This document shows, in pieces, positions 22,232-56,663 of a DNA stretch of 64,000 nucleotides. Source of the DNA: Thermogemmatispora sp. (lineage in GTDB: Bacteria; Chloroflexota; Ktedonobacteria; Ktedonobacterales; Ktedonobacteraceae); assembly GCF_042408735.1 (NCBI RefSeq), contig NZ_JBHOQV010000156.1:78442-142441 (forward strand), given 5' to 3'. The notes beneath the pieces were generated by a model. The model saw nothing but the letters and a program-made list of their open reading frames with translations. It was not told where the DNA came from and searched no databases. The position numbers were made by a program, and so were the translations under genes. The stretch's first letter is position 1; every line of letters begins with the position of its first letter.

Positions 22232-23266
22232 TCAGGTTTCCGCCGGCACCAGAATGCCGCGCCCATGCAGATGGCCGCTCTCCAGATCATGAATGGCATC
22301 CAGGGCTGCCTCCAACGGATAGACCGCCGTGTGTAGCCGTACCTTCCCTTGAGCCGTCAGGGCCATCAACTCGACTAGATCGTTGTAGGTCCCGACCAGG
22401 TTGCCAATAAAGTTGATCTCGGTCGAGATGATATCAATAGTCGGCACGACCAGGCGACCGCCGTAGCCAATGACATAATAGTAGCCGGCACGGCGCAACA
22501 TGGCGACTCCGCTTTCCAGGGCACCACCTTCGCCCACAAAATCAAGAATCACCTCGGCTCCCTGGCCTTCCGTGATTTCGCGAACTCTGGCGACCTCACC
22601 GTCATCGGCAAGCACCGTGTGATCGGCTCCCCACCCGCGGGCCAGCTCCAGGGCCTCTGCCGACCTGTCGACCACAATCACTTCGGCAGGCGTCAGGGCC
22701 TTGAGACACTGGACACCGATGTGGCCCAGGCCACCGGCGCCGATGACTACTGCTCTGGTACCAGGATAGAGGAGCGGCACGGCCTTCTTGACGGCATGAT
22801 AGGCCGTCAGGCCGGCATCGGCCAGGGCGGCGATGTCCTTGGGGGCCAGCGATGGATCAAGCTTGACAACGGCTCGTGCCGTGGTCTTCAAAAATGCCGC
22901 CATTCCACCGTCAGTGGAAATGCCCGGAAAGGCCGAGTTGGCACAGTGCATGTCGTTCCCCGCTCGACAGGCACGGCAGAAGCCACAGGTGATGAGTGGA
23001 TGCACAATAACAGTGTCGCCTACAGCGACGTTGCTGACCCCCGAGCCAACGGCATGCACCCAGCCAGCGTTTTCGTGCCCAAGCGTGTAGGGGAGCGTCA
23101 CACCGGATTTCTCGGCCCATTGCCCTTCGATGATATGCAGATCCGTCCGACAAAGGCCGGCTCCTCCGATGCGCACGATGACATCGAAGGGACCGCTGAT
23201 CGTCGGCTCAGCTACCTCTTCAACTACCGGCGCTTGATTGTAGGCGTGGAGACGAACGGCTTTCAT
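22232..23266 (-). CDS. Zn-dependent NAD(P) alcohol dehydrogenase (MDR family)
   Basis: LCRTDLH, GHENAG, CGFCRACRAGNDMHC, GAGGLG. ATGA overlap with the upstream gene. Confidence 0.92.
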   Translation of the reverse strand: MKAVRLHAYNQAPVVEEVAEPTISGPFDVIVRIGGAGLCRTDLHIIEGQWAEKSGVTLPYTLGHENAGWVHAVGSGVSNVAVGDTVIVHPLITCGFCRACRAGNDMHCANSAFPGISTDGGMAAFLKTTARAVVKLDPSLAPKDIAALADAGLTAYHAVKKAVPLLYPGTRAVVIGAGGLGHIGVQCLKALTPAEVIVVDRSAEALELARGWGADHTVLADDGEVARVREITEGQGAEVILDFVGEGGALESGVAMLRRAGYYYVIGYGGRLVVPTIDIISTEINFIGNLVGTYNDLVELMALTAQGKVRLHTAVYPLEAALDAIHDLESGHLHGRGILVPAET

Positions 23267-24072
23267 AGGGGATCCTCTCCTTCCTGGCTATGCGCTGTCT
23301 CTGCGCTGGCATGCTGGTAACGAGTGCGAAAGAGGGCGCTGCACATGGCGGTGTCGAAGAGGAGGCTCAGGCGTACCGCGCGCAGGCGACGCAGAAAGCC
23401 CTGAAGATCGCCACCTGGAATCGGCTCCCCTCGCTCGTCAACAAAGAGCGGACCGCCCAGACGCAACAGTCCCAGAGCCTGCCCTCGCTCAACGTAGGCC
23501 CGGGCCGCCCGGCCCAGCGTCGAGAGCTGGAGAGCAGCCTCCGGCAGACGCAAGCAGGCTACATCACCCGCTTCATCCCAGGAGAGATCTTCCAGGCACC
23601 GGCTGCGCAGCGTTTCCTCGCTCAGACCCGCCCGCAACAAACGACGCAGCAGCAGATCCTGGCGCATGAGAAAGCCTTTGCGTAAGAAAGTGCGACGCAA
23701 TTCCTGTAGATCGCTGTCCGTCGTGACCTCATCGGGAAAAGCGGCGGCAAAGCTGAGGCCACTATTGACCGCAGTCGAGATGGCCTCGCCGGCACAATGG
23801 TCGAGGAGATAGATCCGGACGCTGCCTACACCTGGCACAGCTCGCGCCTTCTCGGCCAGATCGGAGGCCATCAGATAGGCGAAGTTCGGCGCACACCAGA
23901 AGGTCGGCAGCTTCAAAAAGATGCTGACCGCCGTCCCTTCGATTTCGAGGCGGTCGACGAAGCCCAGGTCTACCAGCGGCCTATCTAGTTCGGGATCAAG
24001 CACATCGGCGATGGCCGCCCAGACCTGTTCTGGCCTTACGTGGGAAGCGCCTCCTACGTCTTGGATGGGCAT
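23263..24072 (-). CDS. DUF59/PaaD-like metal-sulfur cluster biogenesis protein with C-terminal extension
   Basis: VLDPELDRPLVDLGFV...LKLPTFWCAPNFAYLM. Start moved to ATG 24072 (MPIQD) after RBS AAGGGGAG. Confidence 0.8.
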   Translation of the reverse strand: MPIQDVGGASHVRPEQVWAAIADVLDPELDRPLVDLGFVDRLEIEGTAVSIFLKLPTFWCAPNFAYLMASDLAEKARAVPGVGSVRIYLLDHCAGEAISTAVNSGLSFAAAFPDEVTTDSDLQELRRTFLRKGFLMRQDLLLRRLLRAGLSEETLRSRCLEDLSWDEAGDVACLRLPEAALQLSTLGRAARAYVERGQALGLLRLGGPLFVDERGEPIPGGDLQGFLRRLRAVRLSLLFDTAMCSALFRTRYQHASAETAHSQEGEDPL

Positions 24073-24226
24073 AGCTTTTCTCCCCTTGTCTTGCCATCGA
24101 ACGCGCGACAGGACCGGTAGAGAGCCGGGCCCGGTCTGGTGAGCCGGCCGCGCCCGAGCCAGCTCGCCCCCGTTCTCGGAAACCGGCCCAGGCGCTGGCC
24201 GCCGTCGGCTGGCCGCGGCAGCCGAC

Positions 24227-25318
24227 TCAGGCACCAGCCTCAGCGGCTGCGGAGCTGCTCGCCCCTTGTGACTTCAGCCGGCTACCGTTCTCTCCTGCGG
24301 CCACCTGCTGGGCTAGCTCGTCGCCGCTTAGCTTTCTCAGCTGCTCTTCGGGATCGATGCCATAGAGGCGCGCCGCGTTCAAGCCCATAATCTTGCGCTT
24401 CACGTCGAGGGTGAGATCAACCTTGAATTCTTCTTTCAGGTCTTGAGGCAGCTCGAAGGCCATGAAGCGCTCCACCAGCCAGCGGGGCTCCCAAATGGCA
24501 TAGTCGCTGCCAAAGAGAATCTTGTCCGGTCCCACCCAGAAGAGCAGGTTGGCCATGATCTCGGCAAAGTAGCGAGGGCGAGGATAAATGAAGGGTAAGG
24601 CTACGGCCAGGCCAGCGTAGACGTTTTTCTCCTGGACGGCAATCCAGCAGAAGTCTTCCAGACGCGGCAAGCCAACGTGCTCGACGATAAAATTCAGCTC
24701 GGGAAAATGGGAGGCAGCATCGTCGACATCGGCTACATCGAAGGCGTCGCGATTGAGAGGATAAATGGTCGGGCCTTTATGCACATGGATATTAGTGATC
24801 CCTAGCCTGGCGCATTCCTCCAGATAACGGTAAGCTTCGGGACTGGAGAGCTTGTAACCCTTCGAGGAGCCACGCCATTCCGCCGTATAGAGCTTGACGC
24901 CTTTGATGTCCCACTGGTCCTTCTGACGCCGCAGATAGTCCAGGCCAGCATCACCGTCGCGCGCATCCCAGGCCCCGTTGAGGATAAAGCGCTCGGGATA
25001 GCGCTGCTTCATGACGCTGTTTTGCTCGATGGTATTGAAGCCATTGATGAAGAACTCGCTGAGATAGGTGGGCTGGAGAATAGCCATATCGACGTAGCCC
25101 TTGACAAACTCGTCACGGGCCATGCGCTCCGGCGTATAGCGCTCAAAGTCGCTGAGCGGCCAAACGTACTCAGCGGGAGAAAGATTGCGGTGATAGTCGT
25201 AGAAGCAGTCGATCCAGCCGCGCCCATACTGGTTGCGCTGGTTGGCGGGACTGGCGTCCCAGAGATGCGTGTGGGCGTCAATGATGAAAATCTCTTCGCC
25301 CGTCGAGGTGCGGAACAT
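24227..25318 (-). CDS. Amidohydrolase-2 family metalloprotein
   Basis: IDAHTH, GVKLY, HVHKGP, VEHVG, LFGSDY. Confidence 0.88.
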   Translation of the reverse strand: MFRTSTGEEIFIIDAHTHLWDASPANQRNQYGRGWIDCFYDYHRNLSPAEYVWPLSDFERYTPERMARDEFVKGYVDMAILQPTYLSEFFINGFNTIEQNSVMKQRYPERFILNGAWDARDGDAGLDYLRRQKDQWDIKGVKLYTAEWRGSSKGYKLSSPEAYRYLEECARLGITNIHVHKGPTIYPLNRDAFDVADVDDAASHFPELNFIVEHVGLPRLEDFCWIAVQEKNVYAGLAVALPFIYPRPRYFAEIMANLLFWVGPDKILFGSDYAIWEPRWLVERFMAFELPQDLKEEFKVDLTLDVKRKIMGLNAARLYGIDPEEQLRKLSGDELAQQVAAGENGSRLKSQGASSSAAAEAGA

Positions 25319-34114: not shown

Positions 34115-35182
34115 CTACGAGCGCTTCTTGCGCTGCTGAACGATGCGATCGATGTAGGCCTGATCGAGACCCAGCGTCTCGTAGACGATACGATAGCCCT
34201 CGACAGCGTCGGCACGGGCCCGCGCCTCAGCCAGAGCCTGGCGATCGATCTTGCGCGCCAGATCATCGATAAAGGCCCACTGCAACACAGAGCGGCGCAC
34301 CGCGGCGATCTGGTCCTCGGTATAGGGATAGAGATCGTAACCGATTCGCTCGCCATGCTGGCCATAGCCGACATCCTGCAGCGTCATGGCCAGCTCCAGG
34401 GTCTGCATAAAGAAAGAAGCGCCGACCATGTTATCGTCGTCGAAGGTGCCCCAGCCCGAGTTGGCATGCTGATGGCCCAGGCGCCCTTCGGCATGCAGAA
34501 GAGCGGCGTACTCGGCCAGGTTTTCCCCATTCATAATCAGATGCTGCCAGTCCATATTGACAAGCAGCCGCGAAGTATCGACGCCAAGACGCCCGATGCG
34601 CTCGATCGTATAGAGGCAGGCGGCGATATTGCGCATCAGAATGTTCATGGCCGGCTCGCTGTTCTTATGCTCCAGGAAGACCTTGACGCCCTTGGAAGCG
34701 GCATGGGCCACAACCTCAGCCACGCCCTCGACAAAGAGGTCCCAGGTGCGGGCGTAGTCGCGCTGGAAGTTATAGTTATAGCCCTCGGCCCCAGGCCAGA
34801 TAATGAAATTGGCGCCCAGAGCGGCAGCCAGATCAACACCGCGCTTGAGCGTCTCAATACCGCGGCGGCGCAGGGCGGGATCGGGGTTAATAAAGGCGCC
34901 GAGCTTGTAGGTGGGGTCGGTATGCAGTCCGGCGGCGATGCAATAGATGTCCATCGGGCCCAGAGCGGCCTTGATAGCCTCGACGGTATCCTCGTTGATC
35001 TCGCCCGGATAATGGTACTCGAGGCCATCGACCAGATCGGCCAGTCCATCAACCACGCGCTTCGTGCGCGTGACCATGTCCTCGTTGGCCACCTCGGGAT
35101 GGTAGCCGGGCGGGACAAAGCGCGTAACGTTGGGGCCAAAAGCCCAAATCCCAACGCTGTTCTTGATGGCTTGCTGTTCCAC
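34115..35182 (-). CDS. Xylose isomerase-like TIM-barrel sugar isomerase
   Basis: WAF, LHTDP, GAF, WPGAEG, EHKNSEP, DWQH, FDDD, GYDLYP; adjacent to xylB. Confidence 0.75.
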   Translation of the reverse strand: MEQQAIKNSVGIWAFGPNVTRFVPPGYHPEVANEDMVTRTKRVVDGLADLVDGLEYHYPGEINEDTVEAIKAALGPMDIYCIAAGLHTDPTYKLGAFINPDPALRRRGIETLKRGVDLAAALGANFIIWPGAEGYNYNFQRDYARTWDLFVEGVAEVVAHAASKGVKVFLEHKNSEPAMNILMRNIAACLYTIERIGRLGVDTSRLLVNMDWQHLIMNGENLAEYAALLHAEGRLGHQHANSGWGTFDDDNMVGASFFMQTLELAMTLQDVGYGQHGERIGYDLYPYTEDQIAAVRRSVLQWAFIDDLARKIDRQALAEARARADAVEGYRIVYETLGLDQAYIDRIVQQRKKRS

Positions 35183-35481
35183 TGCTCCCTCCTTAGAATG
35201 AGATTCCGGTGGACTGTCTCCCGGTACGGTTGTCTCTGTCTGGCCCCCCGTTGCCCAGGAAGCAATCGCCGATCCACCTTTAAGTATACACCCGCCGGGC
35301 CTGAAAAGGCGATGGGAAGGCAGAAGACCCGCCCAAAGCAGGGTTTCCCATCCCTCACCCGCTCACTGCAGCCGGCAATCAATCAAGCAGTCAGACAGAT
35401 AGACTGGCTGATCTGAAGCGTGCTGGGGAAGGATAGAGCAGAGTGAAACAGAGGTTCAAGAAGGGAAGCATAAAGAAGGTA

Positions 35482-35511
35482 TTGACAGAGAAAACCGGGG
35501 TTCTTTATAAT
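35482..35511 (+). promoter_or_regulatory. Consensus sigma70 promoter with no CDS for about 1 kb downstream
   Basis: TTGACA (35482-35487), 18-bp spacer, TATAAT (35506-35511). Confidence 0.75.
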
Positions 35512-35517
35512 CAGCCC

Positions 35518-36445
35518 ATCTACCAGCCTGGTTGATCTTGCAAGCTGGATAACCTGCTGGTAGCAAATCCAGGTTCAGTCAGCAGAAGAGCAGAGAGATG
35601 GCCATAGATCCCATGGCTCAAGCCGGGGGCCTGAAGGCGCCGGAAGGTGCCTGAGAGCTTTCAACGCAAGTCGGTATCTATGGCCTCCCCGAGCGTCGGA
35701 GGCCGGAGGACAAGGGCGATGAGGACGCTACGTTCCCCAAGTCATTACGTTCGGGGTGCTTCTCTAGCCTCCGAGAGACGTGGCCAGTGGCTAAAGAGCG
35801 CGCGGAGGTGTCAGCGAGCCGCATTCGGGCGGAGCATCTCCCACACGGGTCGAAACGATTGAAGGTGCCGTTGAAGGTCGCTGCGTTCATAAAGGCCACT
35901 CCCTGGGCGTTGCCCCATCGGCTTCTGTCCTTGGGTCTGCCAGTGGAAGGTGGGTGGAAGCGAGAACCAAGAAAGAGCCGTTGGAACGTGGGTTGCCGAA
36001 AGCGCACCTTTCCGATGCCTGCTCTGTAGATAGGCCGGAAAAGATCGCTAGAGCGCAAAAGGATGCGGCCACGTGGTCGGCCGTTGGCCGTGGCACGCAC
36101 AAGAGGCGCTTTGGCCGGCAGACTGGGGAGATGATGGTGGCCGACGCGCCAATGGAGAAGAATGCGGGAAGATGGATTGATTGGTCGCGTAGCTGTCCGT
36201 GTCAGCGAATATTTCGACAGTAAGGACAATGCAGGGAAACAGGTTTGTCCAGGCCGATCGGAAGGGCACCGGCAATTGTTGCAGCAAGCAGATGGATAGC
36301 CATACGAGAAGAAAACAACAGCGGGCCGACGTCCGCGCTGCACTTCCTCCCCATTGCCTAAAGGTGGGGGCATCCGTGCAGCGGAAAGGAATTGGTGAAA
36401 GCCAGGCCATGTGAGGTTTTACCACGACCATAGCGTAATGTCTCG
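35518..36445 (+). ncRNA. Candidate large structured ncRNA (~0.9 kb), family unassigned
   Basis: More than 12 helices found by eye, including long-range nested ones (35600-35609/35676-35685; 35707-35721/35916-35931; 35934-35941/36117-36124; 36137-36142/36405-36410). GNRA tetraloops, A/G-rich linkers, no credible ORF. Ends are approximate. Confidence 0.6.
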
Positions 36446-36549
36446 TAGGGGTTAAATTTGTGCGCTCCCCAAAGAGCTGCGCTCACCGCCCTGCTGTTAC
36501 CCGCGTTTCGCGGTGCAGACCTGGTATTTGCGAAGGAGGCTGTTCTTTC

Positions 36550-37875
36550 ATGAGGAGAAACTGGCTACGCTTTATGGCTCTGACGATGGGCCTACCCTTG
36601 CTTGTAGCAATGCTGGTAGCCTGCGGAGCCGGCACGACGACAACGGGTACGGGCACCAGCACGACGCAGGGGTCCACTATCATCAAGGTTGCCACTGATT
36701 TTCCAGTCAGCGGCGCGGATGCCGGTATTGGAAAATCGACCGAGAACGGGGCACACCTGGCTGTCGATGAGGCCAACGCCAACCATGTGATCCCCGGCTA
36801 CACGCTCCAGTTCGATCCCCAGGATGACGTCGGCGCCTCGGGCATGCACGATCCGACGAAGGGCGCGAACAATATGAAGGCTCTGGTCGGCGATGCTCTG
36901 GTGGCGGGCGTGGTTGGCCCGCTCAACAGTAACGTGGCCCAGGCCGAGATGCCGATTGCCAATCAGGGCCCGCTGGCAATGATCAGCCCGGCCAATACCA
37001 ATCCCTGCCTCACCAAGGAAGGGGCCGATGTGGGCTGCACTGGCGCCAACGATCTGGTTCCGAAGCTGCGCCCCACAGGAAAGGTGACCTACTTCCGCGT
37101 CGCAGCCACCGATGACCATCAGGGGCCAGCTATGGCCGACTACCTCTACAATACGCTGCATCTGCGCACGGCCTATGTCATCGATGATACCGAGACCTAC
37201 GGCGCTGGCCTGGCGAAGTACTTCGTCCAGGAGTGGACAAAGCTTGGTGGCACGGTGGTCGACGGCAAGAGCCATAGCGTCAAGAGCACGACTTCCTATT
37301 TGAACCTGCTGACCGCAGCAGCAGCCTCCAAGCCCGACGTGATCTACTTCGGCGGCAACTACTCGACCGGCGGGCAGTTGATCCAGCAGCAAATGATGAC
37401 TATCCCTGCCTTGAAGAACGCGGTCTTCGCGGGCGGCGATGGTCTGACCGGCAGCTCGGATTTCTATAAGCAGATCGTCAGCTCGGGCGGTAAGGCCTAT
37501 ATGACGGTCGCCGCTCCCGACGTCTCGAAGATCCCCGCTGCCCAGACCTTCGTTAAGAACTATACGGCCAAGTACGGCGATGTGGGTCCCTATAGCGCTG
37601 CGGCCTACGATTCCATGAATATCCTGATCCAGGCTATCAAGGTGGCCCTGACAAAGACCCATACGCCAAAGGATTCCAGCGATGCCGCTCAGGCCCAGGT
37701 CTTCCGCCAGGCCGTCATCGACGCCCTGAAGACCATCACCTATAACGGCATCACCGGCAAGATCTCCTTCGACCAGAACGGCGATACGACGAACAAGATC
37801 TTCACCATCTACCAGGTCACCACCGTCAACGGCAAGCCGGATCTGCTGGCGAAGGATGTCGTTACTGTCCAGTAA
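36550..37875 (+). CDS. livK: Branched-chain amino acid ABC transporter substrate-binding lipoprotein
   Basis: GAAGGAGG RBS then ATG 36550; lipobox LVAC; VVGPLNS, MISPANT, AYVIDD. Confidence 0.85.
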   Translation: MRRNWLRFMALTMGLPLLVAMLVACGAGTTTTGTGTSTTQGSTIIKVATDFPVSGADAGIGKSTENGAHLAVDEANANHVIPGYTLQFDPQDDVGASGMHDPTKGANNMKALVGDALVAGVVGPLNSNVAQAEMPIANQGPLAMISPANTNPCLTKEGADVGCTGANDLVPKLRPTGKVTYFRVAATDDHQGPAMADYLYNTLHLRTAYVIDDTETYGAGLAKYFVQEWTKLGGTVVDGKSHSVKSTTSYLNLLTAAAASKPDVIYFGGNYSTGGQLIQQQMMTIPALKNAVFAGGDGLTGSSDFYKQIVSSGGKAYMTVAAPDVSKIPAAQTFVKNYTAKYGDVGPYSAAAYDSMNILIQAIKVALTKTHTPKDSSDAAQAQVFRQAVIDALKTITYNGITGKISFDQNGDTTNKIFTIYQVTTVNGKPDLLAKDVVTVQ

Positions 37876-55930: not shown

Positions 55931-56663
55931 GGTTTGACCAGCCTCTCCATCGTCATGACTGCGCAGCCCAGAAGCCCATCGGCGAACAACTTTTGCCCGG
56001 AGATTACGACCTTACAGCCTGTGCGCTTCAAGCAGCCGCAACCTGGATAGTCTCCCAGCGTAGGGCGAGCTGCTGGCGCCCCTTCGGATCCAGGGTAGTC
56101 TCCGAGGAGGGAGGTCGTCAAGAGCATTGTCATCGTCCCGGATAAGGGCGCTGGCACAGCACGTCTTCCATAAAGACATGCCGCTGGGGACCCCTGGCTT
56201 CGGCCAGGGGAGGAAGAAGGCTCCCTCCCGACGCTTCGCATGGGGTTGACACCGCCGTCTCTCCGGTGGTATCCCGCTCTTCATGCGGCCAACAGCACTG
56301 GCCAGCGGACAGCAACGGCTTCGCCTCACCTCGCGGGAGGAAGCGGGTTTACCCAGCCAGGGCTGCTCGACTGCCCCGTGGGCAGTGAGCCGCGGTCAAC
56401 CAGTCCGCAAGCCCGGGCCGGTCAGGCTGCGGGCCGGCTCATGGCTCAAGCCAGGAGCCGTTGACCGGGGAGGCAAAGGGTTCCTTCCAGAGGCAGGCCA
56501 AGGCCGCACTTTCTCCCTTCTGGTCAGGATAGCCAGGTCGCTCTATAATACTACAAGGCAGTGCTTTCGGATAGCGGGCCGCTCGCTTTAGTGGAGCGGC
56601 CCTTAGCTTGCCGCTGCGGCCTCGCGCCGTGACCAGCCGGCCCCCTGTGCTCCCAGGCCATGC

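Follow-up and report, generated by a model that had tools for sequence, protein, structure and literature searches.

A structured-RNA candidate in the livK leader of Thermogemmatispora sp. is very probably an internally deleted, decayed ISC element

Introduction

The HEARO RNA (Rfam RF02033) is the omegaRNA scaffold of the IscB nuclease, and the IscB guide adjoins the transposon end, in the host DNA outside it (Meers et al., 10.1101/2023.03.14.532601). As the guide is taken from host DNA outside the element, IscB omegaRNAs need transcription from outside; their transcription depends on an outside promoter, and ISC elements are biased to sites with same-orientation upstream genes (Meers et al., 10.1101/2023.03.14.532601). 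The subterminal hairpins of such elements are recognised by Y1 transposases (Kapitonov et al. 2016, PMC4810608). The ISC2 elements of Ktedonobacter racemifer are multi-copy and polymorphic between species, lack inverted terminal repeats and have subterminal hairpins instead, start with a 5′ end of the form GT^CA... (the caret marks the cut), sit in targets that look like GT^GG or GT^GA with no evident duplication, and encode IscB only, with TnpA needed in trans (Kapitonov et al. 2016, PMC4810608). The PATE/MITE-like derivatives of IS200/IS605 elements are protein-less, keep both transposase-recognised ends and are mobilised in trans (Meers et al. 2023; Kapitonov et al. 2016).

The present locus lies in a 64,000-nt stretch of Thermogemmatispora sp. 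DNA (the window, here meaning that whole stretch). A ~0.9-kb interval upstream of livK had been proposed in a preliminary description, made from the sequence alone, as an ornate non-coding RNA. The interval is very probably an internally deleted, decayed copy of an ISC element (IscB-type IS200/IS605) inserted between the livK promoter and livK. It resembles the ISC2 elements in copy number, polymorphism and end structure, its target appears to be of their kind, and like them it would depend on TnpA in trans; it differs from them in measuring ~790 bp rather than ~1.35-1.8 kb, in its 896-bp deletion and in encoding no nuclease. With the PATEs it shares the absence of a protein, the retention of both ends and, probably, mobilisation in trans, although it is much longer and carries recognisable omegaRNA and iscB remnants. 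The element is thus a degenerate member of the known ISC/IscB-HEARO family and no new RNA class.

Results

The whole inserted element is a non-autonomous ISC copy of ~790 bp on the plus strand (~35603..36395, each boundary being uncertain by a few nt) and lies in the same orientation as livK, ~90 nt downstream of the livK promoter. Empty sites were sought by BLAST among 40 relatives with 35482-36550 as the query. The two flanks (query positions 1-107 and 913-1069) are ~11 nt apart, at 83-93% identity, in all seven same-genus genomes, and the left flank (35482-35588) has 91-93% identity in the sister species. Since the flanks are adjacent in each of these seven genomes, ~790 bp were added in the source lineage. 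The 5′ terminus has the form G(T/C)^CATAGA, the 3′ terminus ...GGAATTGG^TGAA, with GT (GC in the window copy) as the 5′ flank and GGTGAA as the 3′ flank; the sister sites contain GGTGGG and GGTGAA, with a small indel at the junction. By this alignment the termini appear to fit the ISC2 ends with GT^GG or GT^GA targets of Kapitonov et al., but poor alignment of the 14 nt to the left of the element (35589-35602) with the sister sites, where an indel of 5-8 nt is needed, prevents the exact insertion cut from being placed.

The host sequences on either side are those of the livK locus. The sigma-70-type promoter TTGACA-N18-TATAAT (35482..35511, plus strand, with TTGACA at 35482 and TATAAT at 35506) is real, as had been claimed, with a match at 12 of 12 consensus positions, and is part of the host livK leader rather than of the inserted element. 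Identical promoter sequence is found at six sister-species loci without the insertion, and because promoter, leader and livK are contiguous in the sister species without the ~800 bp, the consensus promoter is, judging from these loci, the native livK promoter. The 5′ part of the native leader (35512..35602, plus strand) is conserved to ~35588 in the sister species, and its last ~14-20 nt occupy the position of the IscB omegaRNA guide in intact elements. The 3′ part (36396..36549, plus strand) contains the ribosome binding site GAAGGAGG and has 89-93% identity to the sister species, in which it is continuous with the 5′ part. No plus-strand terminator is predicted. The leader is followed by the gene for a livK-like periplasmic branched-chain amino-acid binding protein (36550..37875, plus strand; Pfam Peripla_BP_6, E 3.7e-31) and, downstream of it, by a branched-chain permease gene (BPD_transp_2), and the other neighbour of the interval is a xylose-isomerase-like TIM-barrel gene (34115-35182, minus strand).

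The native livK leader (35512-35588 plus 36396-36549) is itself of note, as it measures ~250 nt from promoter to ATG in the sister species, is ~90% conserved in seven species and contains a strong hairpin, CTACCAGC...GCTGGTAG, at 35521-35563. None of the Rfam families matches it, and it may be an unrecognised leader element. A minus-strand ORF of 231 aa (35678-36373) was also considered as a gene; it has no Pfam match and is treated as spurious. It shows patchy similarity only, with frame breaks, to an antisense ORF of the related copy at C115, and the intact Pyrinomonas iscB gene likewise has long antisense frames.

The first part of the element (35601..35819, plus strand) is a truncated omegaRNA scaffold of the HEARO family, covering approximately model positions 1-165 of 211. 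It has 81% identity to an own-genome paralog, C122:2579-2796, and the slightly longer interval C122:2579-2845, just upstream of IscB, is a full-length match to the Rfam HEARO model (67.7 bits, E 1e-13). The 5′ part of the window copy also aligns over 221 nt with a Pyrinomonas HEARO RNA that scores 128.8 bits (74% identity, E 7e-37). On the HEARO covariance model the window copy itself reaches 13.7 bits (E 1.2-4.7, 35601-35731) against a gathering score of 83 bits, and the livK-leader locus is absent from the matches of a whole-genome HEARO search. The score being so far below the gathering score, family membership rests on homology to the paralogs and not on the covariance model. As in HEARO, P1 (GGCCAUAGA/UCUAUGGCC) is present with compensatory changes together with three hairpins (the first hairpin, the AGCGU/ACGCU hairpin and the hairpin UUCGGGGUG...CCUCCGAG), and the RNA part stands at the element end, in sense to iscB and behind an outside promoter. 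Unlike HEARO, it lacks model positions ~166-211, which were removed by a deletion between 35819 and 35820. According to the structure lines of the HEARO match, this deletion took the 3′ strands of three pairings, namely the last hairpin, an 11-bp long-range helix and the pseudoknot. The strand left without a partner has drifted in the window copy, which reads GUUCCCCAAGU vs GUUAUCCCGGU in the C122 and C115 copies, and of the three omegaRNA parts that of the window copy has diverged furthest (78-81% identity). RNAalifold on a MAFFT alignment of nine own-genome HEARO copies yields a partial structure only. Downstream of the truncated omegaRNA, on the same strand, lies an iscB remnant with no intact iscB ORF. 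The truncated omegaRNA is probably non-functional.

The deletion junction (35812..35832, plus strand) is placed by a four-way alignment and exact coordinates, with CAGCGAGC on its left side and CGCATTCGGGCGG on its right. Relative to C122, 896 bp are missing (C122:2797-3692), and the window copy jumps directly to C122:3693. The missing segment held the omegaRNA 3′ strands, a downstream extension of the omegaRNA and the N-terminal half of IscB with RuvC-I/II, the bridge helix and HNH. What follows the junction is a pseudogene of the C-terminal half of iscB (35820..36329, plus strand), with the RuvC-III H..DA motif and the target-adjacent-motif-interacting region. A tblastn alignment of C122 IscB residues 198-397 onto 35781-36323 gives 42% identity (E 2e-36), and the remnant corresponds to residues 271-465 of the intact 476-aa Pyrinomonas IscB. 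Read in three frames, the remnant is shifted in frame twice (frame path 0 to 2 to 0), contains in-frame stops and has lost 51 nt by deletion as well as its original stop codon, and the window copy codes for no nuclease, having only the frameshifted equivalent of residues ~271-465 of 476. The earlier statement that there is no credible ORF before livK is correct to the extent that 35512-36549 contains no intact plus-strand ORF, whereas it overlooks that 35820-36329 is a recognisable iscB pseudogene.

Imperfect subterminal hairpins are present at both ends of the element, without terminal inverted repeats. The hairpin at the omegaRNA-side end, TCCCATGGCTCAAGCCGGGGG (35609..35629, plus strand), is of the kind bound by the Y1 transposase TnpA, and the motif CCCCAYGGCTNAAGCCGGGGG is found at dozens of IS200/IS605-type ends in the source genome. 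The 3′ subterminal hairpin, CGCTGCAC...GTGCAGCG around CCCCATTGCCTAAAGGTGGGGG (36336..36383, plus strand), shares its motif class with other element ends and contains a CCCCA...GGGGG motif similar to the one at the 5′ end (35609-35629). All eight of its pairs form in the window, C115 and C122 copies, with one compensatory change from U-A to C-G; in the C125 copy the hairpin is not alignable (one of eight pairs).

Five related copies are present in the source genome, with loci on C115, C122, C125 and C192. The copies at C122 and C125 have ~0.9-1.1 kb extra in the middle, which encodes IscB, with matches to Pfam RRXRR (E 4e-38) and HNH and with TbaIscB (2e-36) and OgeuIscB (~1e-9) as PDB relatives. 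Genome-wide there are 13 HEARO matches (three above the gathering score), one Y1 TnpA and ~10 IscB loci, of which many are broken. As at least seven other HEARO-linked loci keep C-terminal IscB pieces only, the genome is home to a whole set of mini-ISC elements, deleted internally at differing breakpoints. Loci of this mini-ISC type are C39:28677-29640, C125:10651-11240, C97:~22900-24584, C65:55213-~55800, C30:10539-~11000 and C2:~164900-166496.

The copy at C115:18164-19052 has a deletion junction identical to that of the window copy (C115:18374-18390). The two copies have no flanks in common, and the C115 copy is an insertion too, being absent from seven of seven sister genomes. The identical junction at a second locus that is also absent from the sister species therefore indicates that the deleted form was mobilised in trans; the movement would have been by TnpA, and both end hairpins survive, as this would need. 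With C125 as the outgroup, a quartet count finds 24 sites that group the window and C115 copies, the other two groupings having 12 and 10. The window, C115 and C122 copies are nearly equidistant (81-83% identity), and a clade defined by the shared deletion is modestly supported; gene conversion could instead have copied the deletion between the window and C115 loci.

The differences among the window, C115 and C122 copies are spread evenly over codon positions with no third-codon excess, whereas C122 vs C125 retains a coding signature (0.58 at third positions vs 0.33 and 0.32). By these substitution patterns, the window copy appears to have decayed without protein-coding constraint after its insertion. 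In the best-preserved paralog, the C122 copy, the PLMP/RRXRR N-terminus is split over two frames (C122:2908-3443) and the substitutions unique to this copy have no third-codon bias. For these two reasons its iscB is probably also a pseudogene despite an open frame of 495 codons.

Within the species-representative collection, the closest intact relative to be found belongs to Pyrinomonas methylaliphatogenes K22, a member of a different phylum. The K22 element (NZ_CBXV010000002.1, L039 1024-2860) comprises the HEARO RNA of 128.8 bits, an open 476-aa IscB with an N-terminal PLMP and the same kind of 3′ hairpin. The K22 IscB shares 77% protein identity with the C125 copy despite the difference in phylum, and this degree of sequence similarity suggests a recent horizontal spread of this ISC subfamily.

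The Y1 transposase family PF01797 has its sole match in the assembly at C114:5004-5354 (118 bits), with one TGA inside the match. The Y1 transposase locus (C114:4889-5354) adjoins hairpins of the same motif class and is a candidate trans-mobiliser. Elsewhere in the window, an intergenic repeat of ~300 bp (56164-56466) has IS200/IS605-type hairpins at both ends (GTCAAC and CC.GGCT.AAGCC.GG, minus strand). The repeat matches no Rfam family and exists in at least 10 genome copies (74-83% identity); it appears to be a PATE/MITE-like relative, without a protein, from the same transposon superfamily.

Discussion

The features of the locus can be brought together in the following scheme. An intact ISC element comprises an omegaRNA scaffold of ~230-270 nt at one end, with its guide drawn from the flanking host DNA, followed by iscB and a short end region. 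The iscB product is an RNA-guided nuclease with RuvC and HNH domains, and the subterminal hairpins at both ends are used by Y1 TnpA, supplied in trans, for single-strand 'peel and paste' transposition. In the window copy the 896-bp deletion joined the omegaRNA, at position ~165, to mid-iscB. Retention of both end hairpins would have left the short form movable by TnpA, and since the divergence from the sister species it has entered at least two sites in this species, one of them being the livK leader. Most likely, the insert is now an inert passenger of ~790 nt in the livK 5′ leader, where it would be co-transcribed by read-through from the livK promoter. The dependence of IscB omegaRNAs on outside transcription explains the arrangement at the livK leader of a strong host promoter followed by structured RNA.

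A single ornate non-coding RNA of ~0.9 kb, of the GOLLD, ROOL or OLE class and expressed from the consensus promoter, is extremely improbable as an account of the same interval. Its promoter is real, many local hairpins exist as strings, with every string quoted in the preliminary description present at its position, and the 5′ quarter does derive from a structured RNA. What stands of the proposal is that the first ~220 nt come from HEARO, one of the families that had been listed for checking; there is no 0.9-kb RNA of the GOLLD, ROOL or OLE kind. The likeness to GOLLD, ROOL and OLE lies in size range and a GC-rich hairpin look only, while the window copy differs from them in having no covariance-model match, no excess folding stability and no site conservation, and in being mostly coding-derived. 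Rfam searches return nothing at gathering score over the whole window and no GOLLD, ROOL, OLE, intron or T-box match in 35300-36600 even at E ≤ 10, where the region yields chance-level ylbH and lncRNA fragments plus the weak HEARO match. The supposed folding beyond chance is not borne out, as z for 35518-36460 (943 nt) is -1.74 (plus strand) and -1.30 (minus strand). For the thirds 35600-35830, 35831-36120 and 36121-36401 it is -1.39, -0.33 and -0.16, and 20, 64 and 84 of 200 shuffles reach an equally good fold. Three of the quoted helices are kept in the window, C115 and C122 copies, two of them also in the more distant C125 copy: GGCCATAGA/TCTATGGCC, which is HEARO P1 and shows compensatory changes, AGGCGCC/GGTGCCT, which is one HEARO hairpin, and the 3′ end hairpin CGCTGCAC/GTGCAGCG. 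The long-range helices that were thought to close domains are lost, with 1-5 pairs left in the full-length paralogs; GGTCTGCC/GGCAGACT retains 5/8 and 4/8 pairs there, GTGGCC/GGCCAT 1-2/6 and CCAAT/ATTGG 0-1/5. The stretch is moreover absent in the sister species, and two thirds of it are iscB pseudogene. Pattern scans of genome and metagenome contig collections do not find the exact junction pattern, and BLAST over the 40 relatives with 35482-36550 finds flanks only and no same-junction copy. Two outcomes that the preliminary description had named beforehand as speaking against a large RNA are thus what was observed, namely a broken protein ORF that explains most of the region and folding that does not surpass that of shuffled sequence. 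Among other known classes, a group II intron was rejected since it has no Rfam match, the ends CATAGA...GGAATTGG are not GUGYG...AY and the paralog ORF is IscB and not a reverse transcriptase; retron and T-box models give no matches either.

A cis-regulatory switch of livKHMGF, either a riboswitch or an attenuator, in which helices within 35598-35845 exclude one another, would suit the position in the livK 5′ leader, and alternative hairpins are possible around 35635-35665. In every copy, however, these hairpins belong to the inserted HEARO scaffold, unrelated loci carry the same sequence, and the stretch is a lineage-specific transposon insertion without which seven sister species keep promoter, leader and livK, leaving such a switch next to no probability. 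A different proposal is that the short form is still useful, either as a stand-alone or decoy omegaRNA made from host promoters and binding IscB made elsewhere, or as a still-mobile mini-ISC. Both end hairpins are intact, the form has moved at least once, it is sense-oriented behind a strong promoter as omegaRNAs need, and the genome has at least one other IscB locus whose frame appears open (C39). Such usefulness is nevertheless very unlikely, given that the deletion took the 3′ strands of two helices and of the pseudoknot, that in the window copy, whose omegaRNA part is the furthest diverged of the three, the 5′ strand left unpaired has drifted, and that the single TnpA of the assembly has a TGA inside its match. 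It is likewise very unlikely that the short form is a selected, still-mobile 'mini-ISC' whose host-driven truncated omegaRNA acts as a decoy or competitor for IscB or as a tuner of downstream genes. The preferred reading remains that of an inert, decayed ISC copy.

For annotation, the livK operon of this species has an ISC remnant of ~790 bp in its 5′ leader, and the livK transcript must therefore read through the remnant or start inside it. The result removes a false lead for a new large-RNA class and shows, as a worked example, how an ornate RNA can be mimicked by GC-rich transposon debris that lies behind a host promoter. For IscB and omegaRNA biology, it adds a small case, an ISC derivative that transposed with its ends retained after an internal deletion.
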